From the IMG/VR virus record IMGVR_UViG_3300029747_000004: 64,000 nucleotides of DNA; one strand, given 5' to 3'. Position numbers and translations under genes: made by a program. Position 1 is the first letter of the stretch. Each line of letters opens with the position of its first letter. This document shows positions 12,391 through 61,551 of the stretch, one piece after another. A model generated the notes under the pieces. It saw only the letters and a list, made by a program, of their open reading frames with translations, did not search any database and was not told the DNA's origin. This DNA comes from a virus (taxonomy: Duplodnaviria > Heunggongvirae > Uroviricota > Caudoviricetes).

Positions 12391-13366
12391 GTTTTCTCTT
12401 CCATTCTCTTTTACTCAATTTATTAGCCTCATGTTGACAATACTCACATCTATATGTTGTATTATTTTTATAATCGTTAATATAAACCACCTCACCACAA
12501 TCAACACATATAATCTTCTTTGGCTCATAGTCTAACGTATATTCGTCTTTATCTTTATACTTCGGCTCATATTTTGGAACACACGTTCTACAATATAACG
12601 AATTATTATTTTGCTCATTCATATTAATGTTTTTGCCAATAACATTACCTCTAACTTTAAATAATTTACCGCAGTTCTTACATTTCTTGTATCCTCCACC
12701 ATTTTTCCAATTTAAATAAGTAAATGCAAGCTCATAATAACTTGATTCATCAAGTTCTAGCACTACAGGGTCATTTTCATCATTAGAAATATAATCAATG
12801 CGTTTACTCGTATCGTCATTCTTGTAATTCAAGTGAATAAGTGCCGCTGGTTCTCCATTAATTAACTCATTAATAAAATAATCTCTTTCTTTTGATGGAA
12901 TAGTAACATGTGCCATCTTAAACACGGTAATATCACTTTCATTCTCCCAATGTGTCGGTTCCCTACGAGACATATCCATGAACTTAGCAATTGCTAAATA
13001 ACAAAATAATAATTTTTCTTTCTTAATATCGTTGAAGGACACGATATATTCCAATTCACTTTTTCTGATTTTTATAGTGTCTACAATATTTCTCCAGGGC
13101 ATATCTTTCATTTTCTTAATATAACTCTTTATAGTCTTTGCATACGCGGATAGGTGAAACATATTTGTCCTTTTATTCATCCAATCCTCAACATAGGCAA
13201 TAATCACTTGTTCGTCTGTTGAGATGTTATAATATGCGTCCCAAATTAAATTAAATAGAATAGATGGAATAGTTGCCTTGTTAACTGGGGCATCTAATAC
13301 CACATCGATTCTTCTTCTTGTGTTAAAATAATAATTAAACTTCTCCATGGCTTTCTCCCCCAACAT
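12374..13366 (-). CDS. hypothetical protein with multiple zinc-ribbon motifs
   Basis: CKNCGK...CRTC and CVDCG...CEYC pairs; immediately upstream of the putative RNAP gene. Confidence 0.35.
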   Translation of the reverse strand: MLGEKAMEKFNYYFNTRRRIDVVLDAPVNKATIPSILFNLIWDAYYNISTDEQVIIAYVEDWMNKRTNMFHLSAYAKTIKSYIKKMKDMPWRNIVDTIKIRKSELEYIVSFNDIKKEKLLFCYLAIAKFMDMSRREPTHWENESDITVFKMAHVTIPSKERDYFINELINGEPAALIHLNYKNDDTSKRIDYISNDENDPVVLELDESSYYELAFTYLNWKNGGGYKKCKNCGKLFKVRGNVIGKNINMNEQNNNSLYCRTCVPKYEPKYKDKDEYTLDYEPKKIICVDCGEVVYINDYKNNTTYRCEYCQHEANKLSKREWKRKHDGNR

Positions 13367-16088
13367 AAATATTTTTCATTTTAAATTTCTTACGACAGCA
13401 ACTAAACTCATCATCATCTTCAATAACTGCCTCTGGATACTCTATTATGTAATTTGCTTTGTACAATAAATTATCTACAATTACATCTCCGCACATATCC
13501 CAAACGACACCTTTAGCATTCGGCTTATCATATAACAAGTCAATTAATATATCACAAAGCACTTTCTCGTTAGAGCATACCTCGTAAAATCTACCCTTAA
13601 AAATCAAATCAATAATTGATTTATCTGCTGCACCATCCTCTTCCTCAGTTACCTCGTCAGTTTTTGTCTTTTTAACAAGATTAACAATACTTGCTTTATA
13701 TTCATCGTAAACATCTCTCACCTTATAAAAATCAACGCCACTATACTCAACGCCAGATTTTATAAGTTCCTTATCAAATTTTACTTGCGGTAAACAATTA
13801 AAATCATTAAATTTCTTGTCAACAGCCCATGCAATACGATTTACAGTACCTGGGGACATATCAACTGGGCATCTATTATAAAAAATCTCACGTTCTTTTA
13901 ATAGCTCGTCCGTCAAATTCTCACTTGTAAGCAGTTCATCTAACGAAATATGATATTTTTGCTTAAGCTTTGAGTCAACCCTTTTCACATAGCTGTCGTA
14001 CTGTGTTTTTGTGGTGTTATATCTATAAATAAAGAAAAATGGCTTTCTATAAGCACAAATTCTCTTATTAAACTCCTTTTCAAGCGTAATTTCATCACTA
14101 TCTTGAGCATTTGGCAGACATTGAGATAAATTATTCCATTGCGTATTCATTGGAGTCATCTTAATTCCTTTTACAGAATCAATACTTAGCTGCTGAAAAT
14201 GTTGAATACAGATAGTTCTATACTCCAATTCGTCCCATTCTTTACTACCAATTTCAAATTTTGACTGTAAGTTTAACATACTAGTACCAATGTTAGTGAT
14301 AGATCCGACCTTGTTCTTAAATCCTCGTTTATTACTTGCTGCAATATTTTCTTCTGTAGGAAGTATCTTTGGAGCTTTTCTCTGCTGACAGTCAAGTGCT
14401 GGCAGCAACCTGTGCTTTTCAACAAGAATTTTACTGTTCGTAGTAAAAATTATGTCTCCATCTTCATCGCAGCCAGATTCAGCTATGCGTAAAGTATCCC
14501 ATGAATTAAGAATGATACAATCTTTTATATACCTAAACCAGTAATCCGCACTAGCAGAATATTTAATTTTTTGCTTCACTATGTTGAAATGAGCACACAT
14601 TGGGGATCTCATGCACACAACTTCTGAAACATGTTTGTCTCTCCAAAATTTATGATAAATCTCACCAGCGCCCAACAAACCTTGAACTTTTAATCCAAAA
14701 ATATCTTCACACATTGCATATGGATCACCAGAAATAAGAGCAAAATTACCAGAAACGTCAATTGTTGAAATCTTGGCAAGCCGAATTTTCTTACGAATCA
14801 TACGCTCAATTCTTGAACGAACATATGGATCATTAATTAACTCTCTATTTATCATTAAAGCACGCGCAATTACATCAGATTTCATAACATTTTTATCATT
14901 CAACCCCGTCCCAGCAAGATAAACAATTGATTTTCTTGGATCAAGCGCAATAATATCTTGAATTTCTTCAACGGTGGGTGAGATTAACTCATCAATATCC
15001 TCGTCACTCAAATAATAACTTTGAGTAAACTGATAATTCAAATTTCTACTCTCATCAAGCTCTTCGGACACCTTTGTAAGCCTAAAATCATACCCATGTT
15101 TAATACAATTTTCATAATACGACTCATAACTATCATATGCATCCCATAATTTTAGCTGACTTGTGGTAATAATTACGTCTGCATCCATTACGTTACGCTC
15201 TTGCCCCCATGCGTCAATCACTGTAGTTTTATTAGCAATAGTTTTTGCAAATTCCTTAAAATCAAACGTGAATAACATTCCTTTTAAAAATGCACAACGT
15301 GCGCACACCCCAGAAGAAATTTCGTCAAGTCCAATAGCTTCTTTTGTGATTTTTTGGCTATATTCTGGAGTCATAATTCCGCAACCATCATTTATTTCAA
15401 TTTCAATGCTCTTACCTTTGACTTCGCGCACAATTGGATCATTAGAGTTAATCCCGTCACTAACCTCAATAACATCTGCATCGAATGAAGTATTTGTCCC
15501 CCTAACAACAATCATTTTAGGCCAAGAAACTGCATTAGATGTTGATGATGTAAGCGCAAAATATGCTTCAAGTTTGGCAGGAGTATACTCTATTTTTTCA
15601 TTCCTGCCATTATTAATCATCTTATATACAGACGGATACAACTTTGAATTAATGAATAGCACCGTACTCATTTTTAACCCGCCTGGAGTGCCATATAATC
15701 TATGAAATAGCTCCCCATTAATGATTAAACTTTTGCAACAATTATCAAAATGAGACTTTTTGTCAAACTGAATGGACACTAAATTTGGCTCAAATTGTAG
15801 GCTATACAACTCATCATATTTACTTTTAATACTTTTCTTATTTTCTCTGGTATCATCAAGAGTTTTTAAATACTTTATTTCCTTTCGCACCTGTTCCGCT
15901 TTTAAATAGTTATCACCGGTGCCTGTCATATCTTCAATCCATTTAATTAACTGACTATGACCAACGCTGATCACTATTTCAGAATTACAAGCTATATCAC
16001 TTAATGAAATATTAACATTGTAATTATTCATGTCCAAATAAGTGCTATTCAACTTGTATATATACTTTTGTGGTCTTAATGGTTTCAA
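13335..16088 (-). CDS. putative single-subunit two-barrel RNA polymerase (YonO/QDE-1-like), TTG start
   Basis: 917 aa; ESGCDEDGDIIFTT carries a DxDGD signature like the catalytic NADFDGD/DYDGD of double-psi beta-barrel RNAPs; no other recognisable motif; inference. Confidence 0.45.
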   Translation of the reverse strand: MKPLRPQKYIYKLNSTYLDMNNYNVNISLSDIACNSEIVISVGHSQLIKWIEDMTGTGDNYLKAEQVRKEIKYLKTLDDTRENKKSIKSKYDELYSLQFEPNLVSIQFDKKSHFDNCCKSLIINGELFHRLYGTPGGLKMSTVLFINSKLYPSVYKMINNGRNEKIEYTPAKLEAYFALTSSTSNAVSWPKMIVVRGTNTSFDADVIEVSDGINSNDPIVREVKGKSIEIEINDGCGIMTPEYSQKITKEAIGLDEISSGVCARCAFLKGMLFTFDFKEFAKTIANKTTVIDAWGQERNVMDADVIITTSQLKLWDAYDSYESYYENCIKHGYDFRLTKVSEELDESRNLNYQFTQSYYLSDEDIDELISPTVEEIQDIIALDPRKSIVYLAGTGLNDKNVMKSDVIARALMINRELINDPYVRSRIERMIRKKIRLAKISTIDVSGNFALISGDPYAMCEDIFGLKVQGLLGAGEIYHKFWRDKHVSEVVCMRSPMCAHFNIVKQKIKYSASADYWFRYIKDCIILNSWDTLRIAESGCDEDGDIIFTTNSKILVEKHRLLPALDCQQRKAPKILPTEENIAASNKRGFKNKVGSITNIGTSMLNLQSKFEIGSKEWDELEYRTICIQHFQQLSIDSVKGIKMTPMNTQWNNLSQCLPNAQDSDEITLEKEFNKRICAYRKPFFFIYRYNTTKTQYDSYVKRVDSKLKQKYHISLDELLTSENLTDELLKEREIFYNRCPVDMSPGTVNRIAWAVDKKFNDFNCLPQVKFDKELIKSGVEYSGVDFYKVRDVYDEYKASIVNLVKKTKTDEVTEEEDGAADKSIIDLIFKGRFYEVCSNEKVLCDILIDLLYDKPNAKGVVWDMCGDVIVDNLLYKANYIIEYPEAVIEDDDEFSCCRKKFKMKNIYVGGESHGEV

Positions 16089-48622: not shown

Positions 48623-48760
48623 AACTATGTACCAACATATTGCGGTTTTAACCACCAATGTGTTGAGGTTTTACCCACCAATAGACTGCGGTTTTAAACC
48701 ACCAATGTATTGCGGTTTTAAAACCACAGTATACTGGTACAGAAATAGATAATAACATAT
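48622..48760. repeat. iteron array, candidate replication origin (ACCACCAATGTNTTGNGGTTTTAA x3 plus AT-rich tail)
   Basis: accaccaatgtgttgaggtttta / cccaccaatagactgcggttttaa / accaccaatgtattgcggttttaaaaccac, read directly. Confidence 0.55.
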
Positions 48761-50392: not shown

Positions 50393-50771
50393 GATGGATT
50401 ACGAGCGGGTAGGTCACGTTATCGATAAGGGTAATAACGTAGTGGTTGCAGAAATTACTGGTTGTATTTTTGATGCAGAAGACATAATGAATGAGAGATT
50501 TATTCCGTCTGTTACTTCAGGTCTTCATGTGTCTAATGTTGGTAAGAATAAGTTTGATATGAATCGCAATTACAAGGCTGTTGCTAAACTGCATCCAGAT
50601 GATCAGTGGGACGAAAAGCGCGGTAAGAAGATCGCGAATGATAAGCTTACTGAGGTGTACCACCACAGCATGAATAAGCGACTTGCCAAGTACGCCAAAG
50701 ATTTTCGTAAGATTGCGGATAACATCGATAAGTATCTTGAAGATCGACACTTTAATGCAACGAAGAGTTAA
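50393..50771 (+). CDS. hypothetical protein
   Basis: RBS AAAGGAGCAAGGAAAGATGG. Confidence 0.4.
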
Positions 50772-50794
50772 CATTAGAAAGTATTGACAAATAA

Positions 50795-50823
50795 TGGAAA
50801 TCATGATATAATCAATATTGTAC
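50795..50823 (+). promoter_or_regulatory. sigma70-type promoter (TTGACA-17-TATAAT) feeding tRNA cluster 1; duplicated at 54600
   Basis: ttgacaaataatggaaatcatgatataat, near-identical to 54600-54628. Confidence 0.5.
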
Positions 50824-50954
50824 TGAGGGAGACAACACAAAATGAATGGGAAGGGATGATCCATATGAGGTATACAAGAGAAATTAGTAGTTCGATGGAT
50901 GAGCCACCCTGCTTAGATTGCCCTGCGCCATGGCGATAAACTGGCGCACAATAT

Positions 50955-51104
50955 GAACCCGTAGCTCAGTTAGTAGAGCATCGGACTTGGGATATTAACC
51001 TAGCGGTTAGGCAGGTGGCTGTTAACCACCCAAGGGAGGTTCGACCCCTTCATATCCCGCCATTAATCCGAGGGTCGTGGGAGCAAAGCCCACCGGGTTT
51101 ACCA
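50955..51104 (+). tRNA. tRNA-Lys(UUU)-like gene interrupted between anticodon nt 34/35 by a complete tRNA-Asn gene; atypical D-loop (AGTTAGTAGA) and T-loop (AGCAAAG)
   Basis: Acceptor GAACCCG/CGGGTTT, D-stem GCTC/GAGC, anticodon stem TCGGA/TCCGA, T-stem GTGGG/CCCAC, ACCA end; after removing 50989-51062 the loop reads CTTTTAA. Confidence 0.4.
50989..51062 (+). tRNA. tRNA-Asn(GUU), nested inside the anticodon loop of the tRNA-Lys-like gene
   Basis: Acceptor GGGATAT/ATATCCC plus GCCA, D-stem CCTA/TAGG, anticodon arm GGTGG-CTGTTAA-CCACC, T-arm GGAGG-TTCGACC-CCTTC. Confidence 0.6.
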
Positions 51105-51360
51105 GCAGAGAATTAAGCTACGGCTTCTCTGAATTCCCAACATACCGCCATGCGTGGGTGAGAAGAGAAGAAGGCGGCCGAAGCTCAATGGGAGAATAGA
51201 GCATTTTAATCTTAGCACGGCCCGTGCGCGGGACATCTTTCGAGATGAAAAAAGGGTATTGCGGGGAAGCTCCCCGCACAATGCGGGATTGATGTAATGA
51301 TAGCATAAGTGCCTTCCAAGCATTTTGTGCCAGTTTGAATCTGGTATCTCGCTCCAATAT

Positions 51361-51527
51361 AGTCGTGTAGCCAAGTGGTAAGGCACGGGACTTCGTAGAA
51401 TAGTTTAAAAGTAAAACACTCTATCGAAGGATAGACCTTTACTGGATAACAAAGAGATGTTTGTGCAAGACAAACTTCTACGTCCATGACTCCCGGATCG
51501 TTGGTTCGAACCCAACCACGACTGCCA
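51361..51527 (+). tRNA. tRNA-Gln(UUG) gene interrupted between nt 34/35 by a 93-nt class-II tRNA-like insert
   Basis: Acceptor AGTCGTG/CACGACT plus GCCA, D-loop AAGTGGTAA, anticodon stem CGGGA/TCCCG, T-arm GTTGG-TTCGAAC-CCAAC; loop after removing insert = CTTTGAC. Confidence 0.45.
51394..51486 (+). tRNA. nested class-II (long variable arm) tRNA-like gene, anticodon uncertain (loop CGAAGGA)
   Basis: Acceptor CGTAGAA/TTCTACG plus TCCA, D-arm GTTT-AAAAGTA-AAAC, anticodon stem TCTAT/ATAGA, variable arm CTTT..AAAG, T-arm GTTTG-TGCAAGA-CAAAC. Confidence 0.4.
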
Positions 51528-51559
51528 GATTTATTTAGCAGTAAAAGAAGTGATGACGT

Positions 51560-52327
51560 TTGAGTAATATGACAGATGGAAATGTTGGCAAGAGAATCGG
51601 AATTTATGATGTACTATATGAATGTGATGAAAAGCGTAACGATGGGCATAAGTTATATCATGTAAGGTGTGTATTTTGTGGTTGGGAAACTGACATGCAA
51701 CTCAGTGATGCAAAGAGAGCTGCTAAATGTACACATTACAATAAATTAACACAAGAACAAAAAGATGCTTGGTACGATAAAAATAAAAAGCAGTGTTTGT
51801 ATTGCGGAAAAGACATTCCATTTAATGAAAGATGTCAAAGTGAATATGTAATAAAAAATTTTTGTAATCAAAGTTGCGCTGCATCTTATAACAACAAGGG
51901 AGTTAGAAGAAATCACAAAGATGGTAGGGACTATAATGTAAAATATTGTTTAAATTGTGGAAAAGAGATCTCATATAAAAATAAATATTGCTCTTCTAAG
52001 TGCCTGCAAGATTATCGGCATAAGCAATACATAGAACGGTGGAAGAATAGCATTGAAGACGGAATAGTGGGAGAATATCAAATTTCAGACCACATTCGAA
52101 GATATTTGTTTGAAAAATATGATAATAGATGCTCAATATGTGGATGGAACAAAATTAATGAATTTACTGGAAATGTACCGCTTGAAGTCCATCATATAGA
52201 CGGAAATTACACTAATAATACAGAAAGCAATCTGCAATTGCTTTGTCCAAACTGCCATTCCCTGACGAAAACCTACAAAGCAGGAAACATAGGAAGTGGC
52301 AGAAAAGGACGTCAAAAATATAATTAA
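51560..52327 (+). CDS. HNH homing endonuclease (paralogue of 53833..54597)
   Basis: CSICGW...EVHHIDGNYTNNTESNLQLLCPNCH; shares N-terminal block with 53833 product. Confidence 0.7.
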   Translation: MSNMTDGNVGKRIGIYDVLYECDEKRNDGHKLYHVRCVFCGWETDMQLSDAKRAAKCTHYNKLTQEQKDAWYDKNKKQCLYCGKDIPFNERCQSEYVIKNFCNQSCAASYNNKGVRRNHKDGRDYNVKYCLNCGKEISYKNKYCSSKCLQDYRHKQYIERWKNSIEDGIVGEYQISDHIRRYLFEKYDNRCSICGWNKINEFTGNVPLEVHHIDGNYTNNTESNLQLLCPNCHSLTKTYKAGNIGSGRKGRQKYN

Positions 52328-52380
52328 ACAATACAAAATGAATGGTTGGCAAACCAGTTTAAACAAAGCTTCCACAGCAT

Positions 52381-52464
52381 GCCGTGGTCGCATAGTGGTC
52401 GAGTGCATCAGTTTTGTAATCTGACAGCGAAAGCTCATCATAGGTTCGAATCCTATTCACGGCT
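52381..52464 (+). tRNA. class-II tRNA (84 nt, long variable arm), anticodon ambiguous (loop TTTTGTAAT; GUA/Tyr or UGU)
   Basis: Acceptor GCCGTGG/TCACGGC, D-loop TAGTGGTCGAG, variable arm AGC-GAAA-GCT, T-arm ATAGG-TTCGAAT-CCTAT. Confidence 0.5.
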
Positions 52465-52538
52465 GACTACAATTCCTCACCTTCACGTGGTGTAGTTGTT
52501 TAAACTAACGAGGAAATTAACAACGGAGGTACAAAACA

Positions 52539-52661
52539 ATGACTAAGACCGTAGAAATGCTTCAGGCACGAATCAATCTTCTAAAGCAGCGCGATCCTGT
52601 AGGAAATGCAAATATCATTCGAAAGATCCAGCGTGAAATTCGAAAACTAGAAGGAAATTAA
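52539..52661 (+). CDS. small hypothetical protein (40 aa) between tRNAs
   Basis: RBS AACGGAGGTACAAAACAATG. Confidence 0.25.
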   Translation: MTKTVEMLQARINLLKQRDPVGNANIIRKIQREIRKLEGN

Positions 52662-52676
52662 ATAACATGGTGGGAT

Positions 52677-52760
52677 GGCAGAGTTTGATTTAATGCACTA
52701 GATTCGAAATCTAGCGTGCTTTTAGGAGCACCGTGGGTTTAAATCCCACTCCTGCCGCCA
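52677..52760 (+). tRNA. tRNA-Ser(CGA), class II, encoded CCA; atypical D-arm and TTTAAAT T-loop
   Basis: Anticodon arm CTAGA-TTCGAAA-TCTAG, variable arm GTGCT-tttagg-AGCAC, T-arm GTGGG-TTTAAAT-CCCAC, 3' TCCTGCC-G-CCA. Confidence 0.5.
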
Positions 52761-53296
52761 GAGGGTTGGTGTATCCTGCGGAACTACTGCAAACACCGAG
52801 GCAACAGGCAATGTCTCGCTATGAAAATAGCAAAGATGTGGAACCGGATTTTACTAAAGCATAGTTCAGGACAATATGCGGAGTTAGTCGGAATTAAATG
52901 AGGAAACCCTGAGATCTACACATCAACCTGTTATGGGGGTAGGCTCCGAGAGCTAGCAGGAGAGCAAGGGCCTGTGGAAGTTTGGTTTGACTCCAGATGC
53001 CTCCACCACAACCGCAAGATGTGTTATGCGGTATAAAAATGACGAAACATCCTTTAAGGGTAGGGGATCTGAAATGTGAATCCAGCCACTTAAAGTGAGT
53101 CCTATAGCCCATGATACTAACGGACTATGCGTGAATGGGTGATTTATCACTCTAAAAAGTATCTGAAACGCTAGGCAAATTTGTTCGATGATAGTAAGCG
53201 CTACGCTACTATATAGTGTTTACCGGAGAATCCCTGTTGGTTATCGCTTATCCACAAGGTAGCTAGGATTTAATCTGAAAGAAAAAGCGAATTTAT
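52761..53296 (+). ncRNA. ORF-free GC-elevated block between tRNAs: candidate large structured ncRNA(s) (for example ROOL/GOLLD-type, group I intron, or tRNA-like modules ending in CCACCA)
   Basis: ~530 nt with no credible ORF on either strand, GC well above genome average, multiple GC helices, tRNA-like 3' end GCCTCCACCA at ~52985-53007. Confidence 0.3.
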
Positions 53297-53448
53297 TGTC
53301 CACTAGCTCAATTTGGTGAGAGCCACGGCCTTGATGGATTCATTTCGGGATAGTGTAGTTCAAATCTATGATCCATCACAAATAAGCCGTAAGCCCTAAC
53401 AAGGCATAGTCTGGGTTCGAGGCCCAGGTGGACTACCAGCCATGCTGA
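53297..53448 (+). tRNA. tRNA-like gene (loop CTT/ATAA if spliced, anticodon UAU?) interrupted after nt 34 by a ~50-nt acceptor/T-arm minihelix insert; encoded ACCA
   Basis: Acceptor TGTCCAC/GTGGACT, D-arm GCTC-AATTTGGTGA-GAGC, anticodon stem ACGGC/GCCGT, T-arm CTGGG-TTCGAGG-CCCAG; insert GATGGAT...ATCCATC with TTCAAAT loop. Confidence 0.35.
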
Positions 53449-53650
53449 CTTCGCATGTAAAACCAGTTGAGAAGAAACTGCTCGAAAGGTTATATAATAC
53501 GCAAATGGTGGCTGTCCGACGGCGCGGTTCGAGTCCGCAAGCTATAGGTTATATAATTCAAGTTAGTCTTCCGAGGCAATCCGAGTTCATCACGACTTTA
53601 TTAGAGTGATTGCTAAAGGATAAACGCAGGTGATGCTGTTAGTAGTCCAC

Positions 53651-53680
53651 GGTAGGTTCGGAGATACCCTACCATATTTT
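53651..53680 (+). terminator. hairpin GGTAGG-loop-CCTACC followed by ATATTTT (terminator-like) just before tRNA-Arg
   Basis: Direct reading. Confidence 0.35.
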
Positions 53681-53682
53681 AT

Positions 53683-53757
53683 GCAAGTATCGTCTAACGG
53701 ACAGGACATGAAGCTTCTACCTTCAGAATGAGAGTTCGACCCTTTCTACTTGCGCCA
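53683..53757 (+). tRNA. tRNA-Arg(UCU), encoded CCA
   Basis: Acceptor GCAAGTA/TACTTGC-G-CCA, anticodon arm TGAAG-CTTCTAC-CTTCA, T-arm GAGAG-TTCGACC-CTTTC. Confidence 0.6.
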
Positions 53758-53832
53758 TATTTGATTGTAGTATTAGTAGATACAAAAAGAGACAAATACG
53801 TCTAATGCACAATCTAATTAATTTAATTAGAG

Positions 53833-54597
53833 GTGTATTACAATATGAGAGTGGACCCGAATGCACACATAGGAGAACAATATGGAATATATGTAATTAA
53901 AAGCGTATCTGAAGAAAAAGACAAGTATGGACATTATATTTATAATGGTGTATGTAGTGAATGCGGATATGTTCATTCTGCAAAGTTGGATTATTTTAAA
54001 CGGAAACAGATCAATACATGTACTCACTTTAGTAAATTAACACAAGATCAGAAAGACGCCTGGTACGAAAAGAATAAAAAAGTTTGCTTATGTTGTGGGG
54101 AATATATTCCAATGGGCAATAAAACATTCTTTGAATATAAAATATCGAGATTTTGTAATCAAAATTGTGGCGCAATTTTCGCAAACAAAAATACAAAAAA
54201 GAAAACATATTATTGTCAAAAATGTGGTAAACCGATTGGATATGGCCATGATCAGTGTGGCAATAAACAGTTATGCGATGATTGCAACCCTTTTCGAGTT
54301 GATTGGGGCTTTATTACATACGGAGAAATGAAAAGCAGAAGAAAATATCAAGTTAATAGTAGAATCAGAGAAATTGCAAGAACATTATATAAAAACTCTG
54401 GAAGACCACAGATGTGTATGAATTGTGGGTATGATAAGCACTATGAAATTTGTCATATCAAAGGAATATCAACTCACTCAGATGATACATTTATATCAGA
54501 AATTAATAACATTGATAATTTGATTGCGCTATGTCCAAATTGCCACTGGGAATTCGACCACGGTTTGTTAGACTTGCAAGCGATAACACAATCTTAA
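53833..54597 (+). CDS. HNH homing endonuclease (paralogue of 51560..52327)
   Basis: CMNCGYDKHYEICHIKG...LIALCPNCHWEFDHG. Confidence 0.7.
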   Translation: MYYNMRVDPNAHIGEQYGIYVIKSVSEEKDKYGHYIYNGVCSECGYVHSAKLDYFKRKQINTCTHFSKLTQDQKDAWYEKNKKVCLCCGEYIPMGNKTFFEYKISRFCNQNCGAIFANKNTKKKTYYCQKCGKPIGYGHDQCGNKQLCDDCNPFRVDWGFITYGEMKSRRKYQVNSRIREIARTLYKNSGRPQMCMNCGYDKHYEICHIKGISTHSDDTFISEINNIDNLIALCPNCHWEFDHGLLDLQAITQS

Positions 54598-54599
54598 CT

Positions 54600-54628
54600 T
54601 GACAGAATACGGAAATCATGATACAATA
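54600..54628 (+). promoter_or_regulatory. sigma70-type promoter feeding tRNA cluster 2 (duplicate of 50795 module)
   Basis: ttgacagaatacggaaatcatgatacaat. Confidence 0.45.
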
Positions 54629-54721
54629 ACTACAGTTCAAGGGACAGTACAAAATGAATGGAAAGGCGCATGCAGCAAATGTTTAAGTTTAATATTTTGG
54701 TAAAATATGAAATAAACGCGT

Positions 54722-54844
54722 CTTGAGATATGGGAACGTCTGGACGACAGAATAAAGTGCACGGAGTGGGCGGCACGGACAGCAAATTTACATATGAAAT
54801 TACGGCATTAATTTTACTCCTTGGTTCAATTCCAAGGGTTCCCA
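54722..54844 (+). ncRNA. ~120-nt tRNA-like RNA (acceptor-like GGGAAC/GTTCCC closing helix, T-arm CCTTGG-TTCAATT-CCAAGG), Y-RNA/YrlA-like candidate
   Basis: Direct reading of complementary ends and canonical T-arm; long internal region with repeated CACGGA. Confidence 0.3.
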
Positions 54845-54864
54845 AATCCAACTAATTTTAATAT

Positions 54865-54992
54865 GCCGGTGGTAGCTTAACTGGATAGAGCGCGTACATC
54901 ACACAACGTGAAATGAAAATTTCGCGCACAGCAATTGAACAAGATAGGGCTGTTAACCCCGAGGTTGTTGGTTCGAGTCCAACACACCGGCA
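54865..54992 (+). tRNA. long tRNA-like gene (~125 nt) with internal GNRA-capped hairpin insert (CGTGAAAT-GAAA-ATTTCGCG); anticodon unresolved (GGGCTGTTAACCCC suggests GUU)
   Basis: Acceptor CCGGTGG/ACACCGG, D-arm GCTT-AACTGGATA-GAGC, T-arm GTTGG-TTCGAGT-CCAAC. Confidence 0.35.
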
Positions 54993-55275
54993 CAAGAGAA
55001 TAAAAGGCACTCACAGCAAATTTATATTAGAAGATTATAATGTGGTTTTATAGTAAGATAATAAGTGCCTTGATTATTGAAATGATAGAGAGACTAGCAG
55101 CAACTTTATTTAAAAAAGATATAAGTTATTATTGGTTCTGCCAGAAATGATATTTATGGTCTCTCGAAAAAAAATAAAATCTCCAAAGACATAAACAGCA
55201 ATCTTATATAACGACCTGACTTTTAACCAGACTACGTAAATGTGTGTCTTGAGATTTTAGAAATAAAATCAGATA

Positions 55276-56844
55276 ATGGAGGAAAGAGCAATGGAATTTA
55301 TGAACGCAGTAAAGCAGACTCTAAACAATGAATACAATATGTCCATCACTGAGAACGGAGCTGTTGGATTTAGAACTACTGGCAAGGAACTACTTGATCT
55401 TAATTTTGCGGTTGCTTCTCTTCGTAAGATGAGTGATGAGGAAGTAACTAAGAGATTTATGAAAGCATTTTGTGAGAATAAGATGCTGGCTATGCGTTGG
55501 TTGTTTTATGCTAGAGATGCAAGACAGGGGATCGGTGAGCGCAGACTATTTAGGGTTGTTATGAAACATCTTGTAGAATCTAATCCTGAAATGGTTATCC
55601 CTGTTATCAATCTGATTCCTGAATACGGTAGGTATGATGATTTGTGGTGTCTACTTGACAACGAGGAATCTGCAAAAGTTATATATCAGATTGTAGATAA
55701 ACAGCTTAAAGAAGATTGGGATAATATGAGTACTGGTAAGCCCATTTCTCTCACAGCCAAGTGGATGCCGTCAATTAACGCATCCTCTGAAAAGACTAAG
55801 GAATATGGTAAGAAGCTCTGCAAGGCACTTCACATGTCCGAACGTGAATATCGCAAGGCTCTCAGCAAGCTTCGTAAGTATCTCGATGTCGTTGAAGTTA
55901 AGATGTCCAACAAGGATTGGTCTGAAATCAAGTATGAAACAGTTCCTTCTCGTGCAAATCTTATCTATAACAGCGCATTCCTCAGAAATGATGAAGTACG
56001 TCGTAGGGAATATCTTGGAAAGCTTGAAAAAGGAGAAACGAAGATTAATGCGTCAACGCTTTTCCCCCATGATATTGTTCATAAATATGCTATTCACTAT
56101 GGGTGGAAATGTAGTCTAAATCAGAAGGACGCAACTATTGAGGCTCTGTGGAGGGCTCTGCCAGATACTGTAAACGGTTGCAGTAACACTATCGTTGTTG
56201 CTGATGGTTCTGGTAGCATGATAACTCAGGTTGACCGTAGTTCCAGTGTGACGGCACTTGAGGTTGCAAACGCACTTGCGATTTATTTTGCAGAACATTC
56301 TTCTGGTCAGTTTAAGGACAAGTACATTACTTTCTCTGAACGTCCACAAATCGTTGATTTCAGTAATGCCACTTCACTCCATGATAAGCTGCAGATTGCA
56401 CTGACACATGATGAGTGTGCGAATACCAATATTGAGAAGGTATTTGATCTGATTCTTGATACTGCGATTAAGAATAGAATGAAGCAGGAAAATCTTCCTC
56501 AGAATATTCTGATTATCTCAGATCAGGAATTTGATAGATGCGCTTCCTGTGGAAATAATAGATCATCGTGGGATTTTAAGAAACCGAACCAGAGGCTGTT
56601 CGATGTGATTGCTCAGAAGTATGCTAATGCAGGATACTCAATCCCAAGGTTAGTATTCTGGAACGTTAATAGTCGAACTGGCACAATCCCTGTAAAGGAA
56701 AATGAACTTGGTGTAGCACTTGTTAGCGGATTCTCTGTTAACATCGCCAAGATGGTTTTGAGCAACAAGCTTGATCCTTATGAGTGCCTACTCGAAACTC
56801 TGAACTCTGAGCGCTATGCTCCAATTGAAGCTGCGCTGAGTTAA
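55276..56844 (+). CDS. rsr: Ro60/Rsr orthologue (TROVE domain plus vWA domain with MIDAS)
   Basis: 522 aa; N-terminal helical region with LFYARDARQGIGERRLF; C-terminal VVADGSGSM (DxSxS MIDAS), ITFSE, ILIISDQEF, RLVFWNVNSRTG...GFSVN colinear with human Ro60 LLAVDVSASM ... VAFSDE ... FIVFTDNETF ... KLIVCGMTSNG...GFDTG. Confidence 0.65.
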   Translation: MEERAMEFMNAVKQTLNNEYNMSITENGAVGFRTTGKELLDLNFAVASLRKMSDEEVTKRFMKAFCENKMLAMRWLFYARDARQGIGERRLFRVVMKHLVESNPEMVIPVINLIPEYGRYDDLWCLLDNEESAKVIYQIVDKQLKEDWDNMSTGKPISLTAKWMPSINASSEKTKEYGKKLCKALHMSEREYRKALSKLRKYLDVVEVKMSNKDWSEIKYETVPSRANLIYNSAFLRNDEVRRREYLGKLEKGETKINASTLFPHDIVHKYAIHYGWKCSLNQKDATIEALWRALPDTVNGCSNTIVVADGSGSMITQVDRSSSVTALEVANALAIYFAEHSSGQFKDKYITFSERPQIVDFSNATSLHDKLQIALTHDECANTNIEKVFDLILDTAIKNRMKQENLPQNILIISDQEFDRCASCGNNRSSWDFKKPNQRLFDVIAQKYANAGYSIPRLVFWNVNSRTGTIPVKENELGVALVSGFSVNIAKMVLSNKLDPYECLLETLNSERYAPIEAALS

Positions 56845-57081
56845 TAAATCTTAAACCGTGGTCGCTCCACATTCTATAAGGTTATATCAATTTTAGTATT
56901 AATGCTGCATTGGGTGTCGCTCATTCATGTAAGTCAAACATTATCTAGAAATTGTAGTTAGTAATAGAAAATAATCCAAAGGAGGATTTTGCTTATGATT
57001 GTATCTGCTTATTCTGATTTGGAGGACGAGCCGAAGGGCTAGTCTATGTCCCGAGTAAGACATAAAACTGCTCAATTATAT

Positions 57082-57203
57082 GGCCATGTAGCCCAATTGG
57101 AAGAGGCAACAGACCGTCGATAGCCAGAGCGTAGCGAGGTCATCACTTGCATCGACGACCATTAAAATCTGTACAGGTATGGGTTCGAATCCCATTATGG
57201 CCA
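57082..57203 (+). ncRNA. tRNA-like RNA (~120 nt) with a ~50-nt hairpin (CGTCGAT...ATCGACG) in place of/inside the anticodon loop; Y-RNA/YrlA-like or intron-containing tRNA candidate
   Basis: Acceptor GGCCATG/TATGGCC, D-arm GCC-AATTGGAAG-GGC, stem ACAGA/TCTGT, T-arm ATGGG-TTCGAAT-CCCAT. Confidence 0.35.
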
Positions 57204-57361
57204 AAGTAGCAATATCAACAACCTCCACGTGGTGCTACTTGGGTAATGCTAATAGTTGATAGGCGCGTAATGGTGCTGGACTGGCCTGATTGGGGAGAGT
57301 CGTTTCGAATAATCTTCTGTGTGGAGAAGATAAAATACCAATCACCACACATTTATATTAT

Positions 57362-57439
57362 GGCGCGGTAGTCCAACTGGCAGGAGACAAATCACTCAAA
57401 ATGATTACAGTATGGTTTCGAATACCATCCGCGCTACCA
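57362..57439 (+). tRNA. class-I tRNA with anticodon CAA (Leu-type anticodon on a short-variable-arm body; atypical), encoded CCA
   Basis: Acceptor GGCGCGG/CCGCGCT-A-CCA, anticodon arm AATCA-CTCAAAA-TGATT, T-arm ATGGT-TTCGAAT-ACCAT. Confidence 0.45.
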
Positions 57440-57683
57440 AGCTGGGCTGGTTCTAACTACTTCACAAGTCACAGGCTAAAATGTGGTACCTGAAGCAGCG
57501 GTGGTTGTGGCACCTGTGGAATACCGATAAAGAAAAGCCACCATTGACACTGAATCAATGTAAAATAAACTGCAAGTCGGGATACCGGGCGGAAAAGATA
57601 CAGGTATAAGAGGATAAAGAAAAGTTCAGTTAGCATCCTCTGGCGTAGACTGACGCTAAAAGCAACAAAGAAAGGATGTTTTC

Positions 57684-58676
57684 ATGTTTAGTATTGTGAT
57701 TGGTGTCCTACTAATTATTGTAGCAATTATTGCGCGTATTGTTTGTCCAAAGCTTGGTTCTAGTCGTGTAGGAGTACTTATAAGTGTGGCTGCGGCTGTG
57801 CTTGCAGTAATTATTATTGGAGCTTCTTGCATTTCTATTGTTCCAACTGGTCATACCGGAATCCTTACTACGTTTGGGCGCGTAGAAGACAGGAATCTTC
57901 CAGAAGGTGTAAATTTTCATGCGCCATGGCAGAATATCACAACAATGACGAATAAGGAACAGATTTTTACAGAAACAAATATGTGTTTTTCTGCGGATCT
58001 ACAAGAGGTATCATATACTTATACTGTAAAATATAATCTGTCATCGTCCGCAACTCCTAACATTTACAAGACCGTTGGCGTTAATTACTTTAACGTTCTT
58101 ATTAAGCCTCATGTAAATAATGCAATTAAAGCAGAATTTGGCCTTGTTAAAGCCGAAAACATGACGGAATTACGTACACAGCTTCAGGACAATATCGACA
58201 CTACAGTTTCGAATTTTGCGTCTCAGTATGGTATTAGTGTTACCGTGGTAATTGACGATTTTGATTTCTCTGATGCTTATACAGATGCTATTGAAGCAAA
58301 ACAGGTAGCAGAGCAGGAAGCTCTTCGTGATAAGACGCAGCAGCAAATGGAAACAGAACGTACTAGACAGGCAGCAGAACGCACTAAGATTCAAGCTGAA
58401 AACGACGCTGCGGTTCGTGAAATTAATGCCAATGCAGATGCAGAAGCGGCTCGCATTAAGGCTCAGGCAGATTTTGAAGTAGCCCAACTTGAGGCAGATG
58501 CAATCGCTTACAAGGGTGAAAAAGAAGCGGAAGCAACAAAAGCTCTTGCCGAGGCAATTACTAATGACATTGTTGCTTACGAATATGCGAAGAACTGGTC
58601 CGGCGATCTTCCGACTTATATGATGGGCACTGGAGCACTTCCTATTATTGATATTCCAATGGGTGAGGGGAATTAA
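57684..58676 (+). CDS. SPFH/band-7 (prohibitin/HflKC-like) membrane protein with long coiled-coil C-terminus
   Basis: N-terminal TM helices then VPTGHTGILTTFGRVEDRNLPEGVNFHAPWQNI (SPFH core), Ala/Glu-rich coiled coil. Confidence 0.7.
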   Translation: MFSIVIGVLLIIVAIIARIVCPKLGSSRVGVLISVAAAVLAVIIIGASCISIVPTGHTGILTTFGRVEDRNLPEGVNFHAPWQNITTMTNKEQIFTETNMCFSADLQEVSYTYTVKYNLSSSATPNIYKTVGVNYFNVLIKPHVNNAIKAEFGLVKAENMTELRTQLQDNIDTTVSNFASQYGISVTVVIDDFDFSDAYTDAIEAKQVAEQEALRDKTQQQMETERTRQAAERTKIQAENDAAVREINANADAEAARIKAQADFEVAQLEADAIAYKGEKEAEATKALAEAITNDIVAYEYAKNWSGDLPTYMMGTGALPIIDIPMGEGN

Positions 58677-58735: not shown

Positions 58736-58765
58736 CAATACAAAATGAATGGAAGGGGAGATAGC

Positions 58766-59911
58766 TTGATTTATCTTGATAATGCTGCTACTACACGTAT
58801 GTATCCAGAGGCAATACAGGCAGCAACTGACGTTATGACAAACTACTGGGCTAATCCATCAAGTAGTTATAGTATCGCCGATAACCCTAGAATTTTAATC
58901 GAAAATATACGGCAGCAGTTTGCGGATGATTTAAATTGCATTCCAGAAGAATTAATTTTTACTAGCTCTGGTTGTGAAGCAAACAACCTTGCAATTATTG
59001 GTTTTCTAAAAAATAATACAGGATATGAATTTTACACAAGTGATATGGAACACGCTTCAATTAGTGAATTTGTTGAAAGTCGTCCTGCAACGCTAGGTCA
59101 TGTTACTATTCCTGTAAATGAAATTGGACAGATTAATCCTGATAAACTTAGAATTTTGTTTATAGAGCGACAAAGACTTTCAAATAGGAAACCCTTTGTT
59201 TCTATTCAGGCGGCTAATTCAGAGATTGGGATAAAGCAGGATATCAAAGCGCTGGCCGAGGTTGTACATCAATACAATGGAATTATTCATTGTGATGCGG
59301 TGCAGCTTTTCCCGGAACAACGCATTAATGTTGACGATTGGAATGTGGATATGCTATCAATTTCGGCGCAAAAATTCCATAGTGGACGCGGGTGCGGTGT
59401 ATTATTTGTTCGAGACAACATTGAAATTTCACCGACAACTTATGGAAGTCAAGAAAACCACCGACGCGGAGGCTCGTATAATACCTCAGCTATAGTAGCC
59501 GCAGGTAAGGCGCTTGAAATTACTAGACTATATGATTCAAAATCTTACGTAAAATCGCTTCGTGACAAACTACTGAACAAACTATTAACCATACCAGATA
59601 CGAGGCTCAACGGCCCTAGAAACAAAGATAATAGATTAGTAAATAACATAAGCTTGACTATTGATGGTGTGTCTGCGGAGCGACTTGTTATTCTTTGTGA
59701 CTTGGCCGGTGTTATGATAGCAAAAGGTTCAGCATGTCAATCTCATGAGCCAACTCCGAGTAAGACACTATTAGCTATAGGACTTACACCAGAACAAGCA
59801 CTAAGTACAATTAGAATTACTCTTGATGAGTTTAATACAGAGGAAGAGATTGAACAGGCCGCAAGCATCATTTCAAAACTAGTTTGGAGGATTAGAAATA
59901 ATGAGGCGTAA
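58766..59911 (+). CDS. NifS/IscS-like cysteine desulfurase (class V PLP aminotransferase), TTG start
   Basis: LIYLDNAATTRMYPE N-terminus; SISAQKFHSGRGCGVLFV (PLP-Lys region); C-terminal active-site Cys region GSACQS. Confidence 0.7.
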   Translation: MIYLDNAATTRMYPEAIQAATDVMTNYWANPSSSYSIADNPRILIENIRQQFADDLNCIPEELIFTSSGCEANNLAIIGFLKNNTGYEFYTSDMEHASISEFVESRPATLGHVTIPVNEIGQINPDKLRILFIERQRLSNRKPFVSIQAANSEIGIKQDIKALAEVVHQYNGIIHCDAVQLFPEQRINVDDWNVDMLSISAQKFHSGRGCGVLFVRDNIEISPTTYGSQENHRRGGSYNTSAIVAAGKALEITRLYDSKSYVKSLRDKLLNKLLTIPDTRLNGPRNKDNRLVNNISLTIDGVSAERLVILCDLAGVMIAKGSACQSHEPTPSKTLLAIGLTPEQALSTIRITLDEFNTEEEIEQAASIISKLVWRIRNNEA

Positions 59912-60534: not shown

Positions 60535-61551
60535 ATGCAAGTCAATGAGCTAAAAGAATATTTGTTAAACAATGAGTTGTGTGAAGATGTTCTTACAGCT
60601 CTTGGCTGTGGACATGTTCGTAACAGGGGTGAGTATATCTCTGCTCAAAATCCAGACGGGAATAATAAACAAGCAATTACGCTTTACCTCAACGAAAATC
60701 TCAACTGCATTGATTATACGCGACAGATTTCTAAAACAAAAAGAGCAACTGACATTTTTGATTTAGTGGCGTATTTTAAACAGTGCACGTTCGCTGAGTC
60801 TATGAAATGGGTTTGCGATACAGTGGGACTGGACTACTACCACGAACCAGATGATGTGCCTGAAAGCTTAAAAATACTTCGTTTCCTTCGAGAAATGAGT
60901 AATGACGGTAATGATGAAGATAACAGATCAGTAGTCCCAATTCCAGAAGAAATATTAAATTATTATCTTCCTTACCCAAATAAAATGTTTGAAAATGATG
61001 GAATATCTCTAGATATACAACAGGAATTGGGTTATGGTTATGACCCACAAACCAATAGAATCACAATTCCTATTAGAACGCCAATTGGAGATTTATGCGG
61101 TGTGAAGGGGCGATTATTAGGAGAACCAGACGAGTATAACCCAAAATATGTTTATATCGAACCAACTGTAAAATCTAAAATTTTGTATGGATTATATGAG
61201 AATAAGAATTATATCAAAAATAGCAATCAACTTTTAATTTTTGAAGCAGAAAAGAGTGTGGCTCAATGTGCATCAAATGGTATACGAAATTGTGTGGCGA
61301 TTGGCGGTAAATCTATTTCAAAAACTCAGATGGAGTTGATTATAAGAACAGGGTGTGCGCCTATTGTTGCGTTAGACAAAGGAATTTCAGTAGATGAAAT
61401 TAAATCTGTATCATCAGTATTCCCTGAAAATATACCGGTATATTATATTTACGATAAAGATAATATTTTACTAGACAAACAGTCCCCTAGTGATGACTTT
61501 GAAAAATTTAGATATCTTTTTGGAAATAATATTTATGAATTGAGGCGATAG
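60535..61551 (+). CDS. DnaG-like primase (divergent zinc-binding region plus TOPRIM-like C-terminus)
   Basis: FEAEKSV and VALDKG acidic motifs in a TOPRIM-like arrangement; N-terminal region with primase-zinc-finger-like spacing; inference. Confidence 0.4.
   Translation: MQVNELKEYLLNNELCEDVLTALGCGHVRNRGEYISAQNPDGNNKQAITLYLNENLNCIDYTRQISKTKRATDIFDLVAYFKQCTFAESMKWVCDTVGLDYYHEPDDVPESLKILRFLREMSNDGNDEDNRSVVPIPEEILNYYLPYPNKMFENDGISLDIQQELGYGYDPQTNRITIPIRTPIGDLCGVKGRLLGEPDEYNPKYVYIEPTVKSKILYGLYENKNYIKNSNQLLIFEAEKSVAQCASNGIRNCVAIGGKSISKTQMELIIRTGCAPIVALDKGISVDEIKSVSSVFPENIPVYYIYDKDNILLDKQSPSDDFEKFRYLFGNNIYELRR

Follow-up and report, generated by a model that had tools for sequence, protein, structure and literature searches.

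The question raised by positions 53297-53438 (+) of the window, by which we mean the whole stretch of 64,000 nucleotides (nt) of the IMG/VR virus record IMGVR_UViG_3300029747_000004 (Caudoviricetes) that was analysed, is whether a transfer RNA (tRNA) gene that is interrupted in its anticodon loop by a second, tRNA-like structure can still give a tRNA and, if so, how the interruption would be removed. The object at this locus is an intron-bearing tRNA-Ile(UAU) gene in which the intron is a tRNA-like minihelix. We are highly confident that this interrupted-tRNA anatomy is real and under selection and, judging from the sequences compared below, the gene is probably spliced to a working tRNA.

The gene is 142 nt long and comprises a full cloverleaf plus a 49-nt insert in the anticodon loop (53333-53381), in the order TGTCCAC-TA-GCTC-AATTTGGTGA-GAGC-C-ACGGC-CTT-[insert]-ATAA-GCCGT-AAGCCCTAACAAGGCATAGT-CTGGG-TTCGAGG-CCCAG-GTGGACT-A-CCA. 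The 5' exon (53297-53332, +), which is supported by the sequence, by the intron mode of ARAGORN and by covariation of the acceptor, D and anticodon helices, begins with the acceptor strand TGTCCAC (53297-53303), followed by U8 and A9, the D-arm GCTC-AATTTGGTGA-GAGC (53306-53323), C26, the 5' strand of the anticodon stem (ACGGC, 53325-53329) and the loop nucleotides C32, U33 and U34 (53330-53332). The 3' exon (53382-53438, +), for which the evidence is the sequence, a structural parse against three homologous loci (L025, L002 and L019), covariation and the uninterrupted state of the L019 homologue, resumes the loop with A35, U36, A37 and A38 (53382-53385) and then provides the 3' anticodon strand GCCGT (53386-53390), a variable region of 20 nt, AAGCCCTAACAAGGCATAGT (53391-53410), the T-arm CTGGG-TTCGAGG-CCCAG (53411-53427), the acceptor strand GTGGACT (53428-53434) and A73 with an encoded CCA (ACCA, 53435-53438). 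The acceptor stem is made up of six Watson-Crick pairs and a U1.U72 mismatch, and all of the universal tRNA positions (U8, A14, G18G19, A21, U33, G53, T54T55C56, A58 and C61) could be read from the sequence. Excision of 53333-53381 would leave ACGGC-CUUAUAA-GCCGU, that is a stem of 5 base pairs (bp) and a loop of 7 nt in which position 33 is U and position 37 a purine, and the predicted spliced junction reads ...ACGGCCUU/AUAAGCCGU... (also written ...GAGCCACGGCCUU/AUAAGCCGUAAGCCC...). In the minimum free energy fold of 53297-53438 (-44.2 kcal/mol, z = -2.06) the cloverleaf was recovered with the insert as an extra arm.

The insert (GATGGAT-TCATTTCGGGATAG-TGTAG-TTCAAAT-CTATG-ATCCATC-A-CAA, + strand) has the form of a tRNA 'top half', as seen from its fold in isolation, from covariation and from the effect of removing it in silico. 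Its acceptor-like stem of 7 bp (GATGGAT, 53333-53339; ATCCATC, 53371-53377) is stacked, without a spacer, on a T-like arm with a 5-bp stem, TGTAG-TTCAAAT-CTATG (53354-53370), and the 7-nt loop TTCAAAT fits the T-loop pattern T54 T55 C56 R57 A58; the linker TCATTTCGGGATAG (53340-53353) contains GGG. It thus has the stacked helices expected of a minimal substrate for RNase P, RNase Z and the CCA enzyme (a 7-bp acceptor stem on a 5-bp T-stem with a 7-nt T-loop), and the same contiguous acceptor/T-stem architecture is present in L025, in L002, in both of the Leu introns described below and in the inserts of L006 and L007. An N73-CCA end is absent from the window insert, in which a discriminator-like A (53378) is followed by CAA (53379-53381), so that the tail (A-CAA, 53378-53381) differs from the N-CCA of the two nested cases in the same array; the homologues have CCA at this position (A-CCA in L025, G-CCA in L002). 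The insert is preceded by U at -1 and begins with G at +1, and this combination is the preferred context of RNase P. A preliminary description of the locus, made from the sequence, had proposed an interrupted tRNA-like gene with an acceptor/T-arm minihelix after CTT, and both of these folds are now backed by compensatory changes. The outer acceptor, D, anticodon and T-arm stems are present as it listed them, as is the U-U mismatch that it placed at position 1, and the 20-nt segment that it noted before the T-arm proves to be a conserved long variable region. It was also right about the stem GATGGAT/ATCCATC enclosing a TTCAAAT hairpin, the insert that it put at about 50 nt being exactly 49 nt long, while the end that it gave, 53448, overshoots the gene by 10 nt.

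ARAGORN run with its default settings called no tRNA at 53297-53438, and the Rfam tRNA model (RF00005) did not report the interval either at its gathering score or at E <= 1. With intron detection, the check that had been suggested in the preliminary description, ARAGORN did report a tRNA at 53297-53438, and once the insert was excised in silico it reported a 93-nt tRNA-Ile(tat). The uninterrupted homologue L019 likewise went unreported by the Rfam model at the gathering score; part of the reason why this model fails to find the window gene is therefore probably the long variable arm.

Four splice frames would give a 7-nt loop, with the anticodons AAU, UAU, UGU and UGA, respectively. The frame that we take to be correct from the sequences, CTT/...ACAA/ATAA, gives the loop CUUAUAA and so a predicted tRNA-Ile(UAU) that would decode AUA; it was chosen because three independent lines, namely the relatives with a tRNA in the same slot, the uninterrupted L019 and the interrupted homologues L025 and L002, all agree with it. 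In 11 loci, all from the same type of phage (L003, L004, L009, L010, L013, L015, L017 and L026-L029), the slot can be recognised by an identical 3' flank (GCCATGCTGACTTCG...) and is occupied by a tRNA-Ile(tat) of 78 nt without an interruption. L019 (5556-5645), from a Paludibacteraceae metagenome-assembled genome (MAG) of yak rumen, is uninterrupted, has the same 20-nt variable region and has the loop CTTATAA; it was retrieved in a genome scan with a 17-nt sequence from the variable region, which gave six chance matches and this single true homologue. In the interrupted homologues (L025, 1720-1861 (-); L002, 5840-5980, identical in L005), the chosen frame places the end of the insert exactly at A-CCA and G-CCA, respectively. 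ARAGORN itself read the window gene as Thr(UGU) and that of L002 as Ser(UGA); we rejected these frames because they contradict the L019 loop, the same-slot tRNA of the relatives and the NCCA boundary. In a relaxed scan without a requirement for the tail, ARAGORN also accepted frames shifted by one nucleotide in either direction; the junction therefore cannot be fixed by this program alone, and the frame rests on the 7-nt rule together with the homologues.

The evidence for selection on both structures comes from an alignment of the window gene with L025 and L002, which was scored against a structure of six helices and 33 pairs and compared with 500 shuffles. Standard pairs were formed in 97% of the alignment cells, 19 of the 33 pairs had changed on both sides and all six helices covaried, and none of the 500 shuffles reached any of the covariation measures. 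When the partners were slid by 1-3 columns as a control, only 27-39% of cells were paired and 0-2 pairs were compensatory. Changes on both sides were found in the outer helices (acceptor 7/7, D 2/4, anticodon 3/5, T 2/5) and also in those of the insert (stem 4/7, T-like stem 1/5), and the D and T helices were 100% paired in the three homologues. Since these compensatory changes are among copies that are all interrupted, they indicate that the outer tRNA stayed foldable while it was interrupted and that the insert itself has a conserved structure. A different kind of conservation was seen in the variable region, where a 17-nt core, CCCTAACAAGGCATAGT (53394-53410, +), is identical in four members of the family: it is unchanged in four tRNA-Ile(UAU) genes, one of them in a rumen Bacteroidales MAG, in which every stem has diverged, and this implies a presumptive constraint at the level of sequence. 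Pairing of the GGG of the intron with CCC of the variable region was considered and dropped, as the uninterrupted L019 keeps the same variable region.

The window gene belongs to a class. At least 10 tRNA genes in these human-gut phages carry inserts that are either real tRNAs or tRNA-like elements ending in NCCA or NCAA. Within the window, and all on the + strand, Lys(UUU) (50955-51104) contains a genuine tRNA-Asn of 74 nt with its CCA (50989-51062), and Gln(UUG) (51361-51527) contains a 93-nt tRNA-like element ending in T-CCA (51394-51486), both of them at the junction between nucleotides 34 and 35 (34/35); these are the two nested cases to which the geometry of the Ile gene had been likened, and the position of the insert after CTT does match in all three. 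Ile(UAU) itself carries a minihelix of 49-50 nt, also at 34/35, in the window, in L025 and in L002/L005. A fourth window gene, a Leu(UAA) of a 77-nt type (57081-57204; also in L015), has a 47-nt element ending in A-CCA (57115-57161) at 32/33, and a homologous 47-nt element ending in A-CAA interrupts an 89-nt type of Leu(UAA) at 34/35 in L003, L004, L016, L027-29 and L031. Elsewhere, inserts are found at 35/36 in Arg(UCU) (77 nt, L006), Lys(UUU) (50 nt, L006) and Asn(GUU) (71 nt, L007/L008), at 34/35 in Ile(UAU) of L035-37 (75 nt) and at 36/37 in Ile(UAU) of L080 (71 nt).

In every one of these cases, excision of the unit that runs from the 7-bp stem to N plus CCA or CAA leaves a loop of exactly 7 nt that has U33 and, at position 37, a purine. 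The junctions fall at 32/33, 34/35, 35/36 or 36/37, with the insert always beginning at the 5' base of the inner stem and ending 4 nt past its 3' strand. Thus, the boundaries of the inserts track the ends of the inserts themselves and not a fixed position in the host tRNA. The inner acceptor and T stems are contiguous, forming a 12-bp stack, and U at -1 and G at +1 are present at 8 of 10 junctions. Every confirmed case is on the strand of the tRNA array, and no interrupted tRNA was found on the opposite strand among 1129 candidate stems in one scan and 485 in another. The Rfam tRNA model spans four interrupted genes as a tRNA with a large insertion; of the four interrupted genes of the window it misses three, and default ARAGORN misses all four. 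The Ile, Lys and Leu slots are polymorphic, being interrupted or not among the relatives, with the anticodon kept either way. ARAGORN, in default and intron modes, found no second window gene for the four anticodons of the interrupted tRNAs, and AUA makes up 21% of the Ile codons in 34 window open reading frames (ORFs). The wobble base is one that is usually hypermodified in most of the interrupted tRNAs (U34 in 9 of 10 genes, G34 in Asn); a link with wobble U34 is not claimed, as half of the uninterrupted window tRNAs (3/6) also have U34.

Several features of the individual members were recorded. In the Lys(UUU) gene, with the arrangement CTT/tRNA-Asn(GUU)/TTAA, the outer T-loop AGCAAAG is non-canonical and the 1-72 pair is G.U; L005, L009, L010 and L015 have an uninterrupted tRNA-Lys(UUU) in the slot of window 50955-51104. 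The Gln(UUG) insert (CGTAGAA...TTCTACG-T-CCA; fold z = -3.5), which ARAGORN miscalls as Arg(tcg), is present in all close relatives. The 47-nt Leu intron of the window is 70% identical to the copy of the relatives (L003, 6548-6683), which lies in a different, 89-nt tRNA-Leu(UAA) gene, and the occurrence of homologous introns in different tRNA genes suggests mobility of the intron between tRNA genes; L002, L005 and L010 have Leu(UAA) genes without an intron.

How, then, might such a gene be spliced? The cut sites coincide with what would be the mature tRNA ends of the inner element, and on that ground processing of the RNase P and RNase Z type is the simplest reading. The precursor would fold as a cloverleaf with an extra tRNA-like arm; RNase P would cut where the inner acceptor stem starts on its 5' side (53332/53333), as it would at the outer 5' end, and an endonuclease of the RNase Z type, or alternatively RNase E, would cut after the fourth nucleotide past the inner stem (53381/53382). 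The two halves would remain base-paired, presenting a 3'-OH and a 5'-phosphate within the anticodon loop, and a phage ATP-dependent RNA ligase of the Rnl5 type would then seal them to give the 7-nt loop CUUAUAA, decoding AUA. Both RNase P and RNase Z generate a 3'-OH and a 5'-phosphate on cutting, and it is ends of this kind that ATP-dependent ligases of the Rnl type seal. In Thermotoga maritima, in methanogens and in Bacillus subtilis, the cut of RNase Z falls just behind an encoded CCA, and the acceptor stem is all that the enzyme requires; RNase E, too, can generate CCA ends (PMC7479834). On the sequence evidence, these genes probably need to be cut and re-joined by tRNA-processing and RNA-repair enzymes. 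The specific route through RNase P, RNase Z and an Rnl5-type ligase is put forward more tentatively. It is conceivable, and we would rate it as short of probable, that gut phages have a third, previously unrecognised tRNA-splicing route, in which end-processing enzymes excise a tRNA or mini-tRNA intron and an Rnl5-type ligase rejoins the halves.

No RNA ligase was found among the 30 window ORFs scanned. A look-up of contigs encoding exactly the window protein 60535-61551 gave four relatives, which are 96-99% identical to the window over the shared backbone. All four have an RNA-repair cluster about 5.6 kb downstream of 60535-61551, which is roughly 2-3 kb beyond the end of the window, and which spans about 66-71 kb on the window scale (12761-20545 in L027). 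The cluster encodes a 391-residue protein with PHA02142 and RNA_ligase matches, RlaP, a kinase-like protein with KTI12/AAA_33 and HD domains that weakly matches bacterial Pnkp, and a Thg1-like protein of the 3'-5' polymerase type, together with a metallophosphoesterase, an HD protein, an HNH protein, a RecJ-like DHH protein and several small ORFs without annotation. The ligase, encoded at 15653-16828 in L027, has the motif KLDGTS, corresponding to the KxDG adenylylation motif, and matches the structure of the Naegleria gruberi RNA ligase (5COT; E = 6.6e-30); its match to TIGR02306 (RNA_lig_DRB0094; E = 7.7e-21) scores 74 bits, below the 151-bit cutoff of that family. In L029 the ligase contains an intein, and the same ligase is carried by the IMG/VR contigs of L002, L003, L005 and L009. 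Ligases of the DRB0094 family are 140-fold enriched in gut phages with theta ribozymes, where they are without a known substrate (Kienbeck et al., PMC10879173), and phage RNA-repair genes have been treated only as counter-defence in a review of jumbo phages (PMC7824862). As a matter of speculation, the Thg1-like enzyme might act on the mismatched 5' nucleotide of the interrupted tRNA.

A number of observations weigh against splicing by this route. The alignment used for covariation holds only three distinct interrupted sequences. The identity of the amino acid is inferred from the anticodon alone, and a long variable arm is atypical for tRNA-Ile. The ligase cluster is outside the window, and it can also be explained more conventionally, by the repair of damage from host anticodon nucleases and the healing of theta-ribozyme products. 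Ligases of the Rnl5 type prefer nicks in duplex RNA over breaks in a loop. CCA inhibits some bacterial RNase Z enzymes. Finally, the A-CAA tail and the U1.U72 mismatch (C1-G72 in the closest homologue, L025) mean that the window allele could be impaired, a worry that is countered by the finding that A-CAA also ends the widespread intron of the 89-nt type of Leu(UAA). With these points taken into account, we lean towards the explanation as a whole, that is the blend of anatomy, splicing and route, as the best available.

The strongest competitor retains splicing and replaces the nucleases. Here a dedicated phage endonuclease would open the anticodon loop, and the ends would be healed by the kinase/HD protein and the metallophosphoesterase before ligation, as for Pnkp and Rnl1 of T4 or Trl1 of fungi. 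The full healing set that the relatives have beside the ligase (the KTI12/AAA_33 and HD protein, the metallophosphoesterase and the HD protein) would suit this well, several unannotated small ORFs in the cluster might include such a nuclease, and the CAA tail of two introns argues that CCA itself is not read. Nevertheless, the boundaries are exactly the mature tRNA ends of the insert, as processing of the RNase P/Z type would give, and among the inserts is a bona fide tRNA-Asn, which has to have a 5'-phosphate and a CCA-3'-OH; the products of theta ribozymes (PMC10879173) and damage by anticodon nucleases (PMC7824862) already call for the healing enzymes; and no candidate nuclease was identified. 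We therefore regard a dedicated nuclease as unlikely.

Alternatively, a selfish or accidental insertion may have inactivated the gene, such that the window allele is an unspliced pseudogene lying in a cassette with the drum RNA described below. The window allele is rare, being present in no other retrieved locus, it has CAA for CCA and the U1.U72 mismatch, the array is a mosaic full of HNH and GIY-YIG genes, and the presence of homologous Leu introns in non-homologous tRNA-Leu genes, at different positions in the loop, points to mobility. Against decay of this sort, the outer stems have kept their pairing through compensatory changes (in all seven acceptor pairs, three of five anticodon pairs, two of four D pairs and two of five T pairs), which indicates selection on the outer tRNA after it was interrupted. 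Each case, furthermore, leaves exactly seven loop nucleotides with U33 and a purine at 37, and the interrupted genes are the sole source in the window of their anticodons, with AUA in use. The pseudogene explanation is thus rather improbable.

A further possibility is that the unspliced composite works as it stands, or that the outer tRNA is a scaffold and the product is the minihelix or the nicked halves. In the scaffold version, the minihelix or halves might act as a decoy for host nucleases that target tRNA, or might bind the adjacent DUF2828/VWA protein. The minihelix is indeed conserved, with covariation and a canonical T-loop, and a DUF2828/DUF7788/VWA protein, called an 'RNA-binding protein' in some GenBank phages, is encoded within the array. 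Neither the constant 7-nt residual loop nor the match between the residual anticodon and that of the uninterrupted same-slot tRNA of the relatives would be explained, and we consider both a working composite and a decoy or protein-binding scaffold highly improbable. An intron of a known type has practically no chance of being the answer: the location in the anticodon loop would be in keeping with one, the group I intron of cyanobacterial tRNA-Leu(UAA) sitting at 34/35, whereas an insert of 49 nt could not hold a group I core (about 200 nt or more), a scan of 50500-58000 at E <= 1 gave no Rfam intron or ribozyme match overlapping it, the junctions face each other across a single internal loop (CUU against ACAA plus AUAA; 3 nt/8 nt) and not in two 3-nt bulges separated by a 4-bp helix as in the archaeal/eukaryal bulge-helix-bulge, and the scan of 30 window ORFs did not reveal a splicing-endonuclease domain. 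Excision at the level of DNA by the two tyrosine recombinases of the window was set aside, there being no repeats at the boundaries of the insert.

Returning to splicing by tRNA end-processing and a ligase, parts of it are familiar from several systems. The protein-spliced tRNA introns of archaea and eukaryotes (EndA/TSEN with RtcB or Trl1) are also short, structured and in the anticodon loop, and like them the window insert cannot self-splice, so that an endonuclease and an RNA ligase are needed. Unlike them, it has no bulge-helix-bulge, its junction is at 34/35 (32/33 to 36/37 for the class) instead of the canonical 37/38, it occurs in a virus of bacteria, and the intron is a tRNA or minihelix that sets the cuts by its own ends. 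RNase P and RNase Z excise elements from longer transcripts in the case of mascRNA from MALAT1, the tRNA-like units of gammaherpesviruses and mitochondrial tRNA punctuation. As we propose here, an acceptor/T-arm module within those larger RNAs directs cuts at its own ends; the difference is that their flanks stay unjoined, whereas the flanks of the window insert are the halves of another tRNA and must be ligated. In tRNA repair by T4 (tRNA-Lys cleaved by PrrC, then Pnkp and Rnl1), a phage ATP-dependent ligase likewise seals a break beside the wobble base, although there the break is damage inflicted by the host and here it would be programmed by the architecture of the gene, and the T4 ligase is Rnl1 while that of the relatives is of the Rnl5 type (DraRnl/NgrRnl-like). 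The phage RNA-repair sets that have been reviewed contain the same genes, namely ligase, kinase/phosphatase, RlaP and Thg1 (PMC7824862).

Group I tRNA introns of bacteria and phages, such as that of cyanobacterial tRNA-Leu(UAA), share with the window insert the bacterial domain, a place in the loop near 34/35 and a presence/absence polymorphism; they are ribozymes of at least 200 nt, however, and the 49-nt insert lacks a catalytic core. Split and permuted tRNA genes (Nanoarchaeum equitans, Caldivirga and Cyanidioschyzon merolae) also have halves that are joined in or near the anticodon loop, by bulge-helix-bulge splicing of separate or permuted pieces, whereas in the present case a single transcript surrounds an embedded tRNA-like unit. 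Lastly, maturation of tRNA by theta ribozymes, which resemble that of hepatitis delta virus (HDV), occurs in the same kind of gut phage, and there is a weak theta/HDV-like match at 57204-57261 in the window; theta ribozymes, however, trim the 3' ends of tRNAs, and interrupted or nested tRNA genes are not described in that work (PMC10879173). Full-text literature searches aimed at a prior description found no tRNA or minihelix introns in phage tRNA genes. To our knowledge, no known system combines RNase P/Z excision of the mascRNA type with T4-style sealing of the anticodon loop, and the tRNA introns that we know of in bacteria and their viruses are self-splicing introns of group I and, rarely, group II.

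Short, non-catalytic, tRNA-shaped introns would therefore add a new tRNA gene architecture to the bacterial domain, and they probably imply a new splicing pathway made of enzymes that every cell has plus a phage ligase. If this is true, protein-dependent tRNA splicing would be seen in the bacterial domain for the first time, a single locus could give two RNAs (for example tRNA-Asn and tRNA-Lys), and the missing natural substrate would be supplied for the DRB0094-family ligases that are so strongly enriched in theta-ribozyme phages. Counts of phage tRNAs are probably too low, as standard tools miss the interrupted genes, and theta ribozymes beside such missed genes may have been scored as 'not tRNA-associated'. 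The finding also raises the question of the roles of phage Rnl5 ligases, RlaP and Thg1-like enzymes and of whether a tRNA that lies inside another one can be processed by RNase P and RNase Z. Dependence of tRNA maturation on a phage enzyme might give control over the timing of translation, or protect against the anticodon nucleases of the host, and the architecture could serve as a compact, programmable tool for co-expressing and releasing small RNAs.

The gene lies in a tRNA array on the + strand, at about 50950-57440. A consensus scan found a perfect sigma-70-type promoter sequence (TTGACA-17-TATAAT, with TG) at 50784-50812 (+) and no terminator-like site on the + strand between this and 57700, and the interrupted tRNA-Ile thus probably sits in a long multi-tRNA transcript. 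Immediately upstream is a drum RNA (Rfam RF02958; 53183-53294, +; 59.1 bits against a gathering score of 43, model positions 1-112), which ends 2 nt before the 5' end of the tRNA and is a neighbour and not a part of it. In the original description the drum RNA is followed by a terminator, unlike here (PMC5737381); in the window its 3' end would be created by RNase P cutting at 53296/53297. The drum RNA and the tRNA form one replaced cassette (53178-53432), with homology to the relatives stopping at 53177 and resuming at 53433; the counterpart in the relatives is a different, structured-looking element of about 95 nt together with the uninterrupted tRNA-Ile.

The source is an uncultivated human-gut phage of about 130-170 kb: the relatives are contigs of 130-170 kb from IMG/VR and from assemblies labelled human gut metagenome, and the gene content of the window (G+C content 35.8%) is phage-like, with a YonO-like RNA polymerase of the RNA-dependent RNA polymerase (RdRP) family, DUF932, gp88, an antirepressor, SSB, integrases and many HNH and GIY-YIG genes. 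Samples in which this type of phage occurs include those underlying ERZ1034925, ERZ915365 and SRR25478010. Among 50,697 GenBank phage records no relative was found at the DNA level, either by megablast of the whole array or by sensitive blastn of the candidate gene. When IMG/VR was searched for exact copies of the 3' exon, the sole match was a chance one in a high-GC coding region (L001), and a metagenome scan gave five loci, each with the uninterrupted Ile allele.

A second and distinct class of interrupted, tRNA-shaped gene was seen at window 54865-54993 (+) and in L015 (9589-9716), L006 (5824-6223) and L007 (6329-6688). These genes have normal acceptor, D and T arms, with an insert of 50-57 nt separating the D-arm from a short anticodon hairpin; this insert has a ACGTGAAATGAAAATTTCACGT-like hairpin and an invariant ACAGCAA, and is without an NCCA or an acceptor-like stem. 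A strong promoter-like site (54599-54627) lies upstream of the window member.

Elsewhere in the array, the weak HDV-like ribozyme match at 57204-57261 (+; RF02682, 27 bits, E = 0.065) immediately follows the discriminator of the interrupted tRNA-Leu(UAA), a gene without CCA, and resembles the theta ribozymes of gut phages, and a similar sequence follows the Leu genes in all relatives. The tRNA-Thr(UGU) at 52381-52464 (+) has a long variable region of 13 nt with a small hairpin (AGC-GAA-AGCT), and among the relatives this tRNA alternates between an 84-nt form, as in the window, and a 75-nt form. Three protein genes lie in or next to the array: the DUF2828/DUF7788/VWA protein (55276-56844, +), which is present in 706 GenBank phage records and is sometimes annotated 'RNA-binding protein', an SPFH/Band-7 protein (57684-58676, +) and a cysteine desulfurase of the NifS/IscS type (58745-59911, +), which could serve tRNA thiolation. 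Further away, a 917-residue protein (13335-16088, -) matches the eukaryotic-type RdRP family PF05183 (E = 1e-14) and presumably resembles the YonO-like single-subunit RNA polymerases of some phages. Upstream of the array, a 38-nt hairpin (48667-48704, +; GGTTTTA...TTAAACC, then ACCA) is kept in all close relatives and could be a stand-alone minihelix or merely a terminator-like hairpin.

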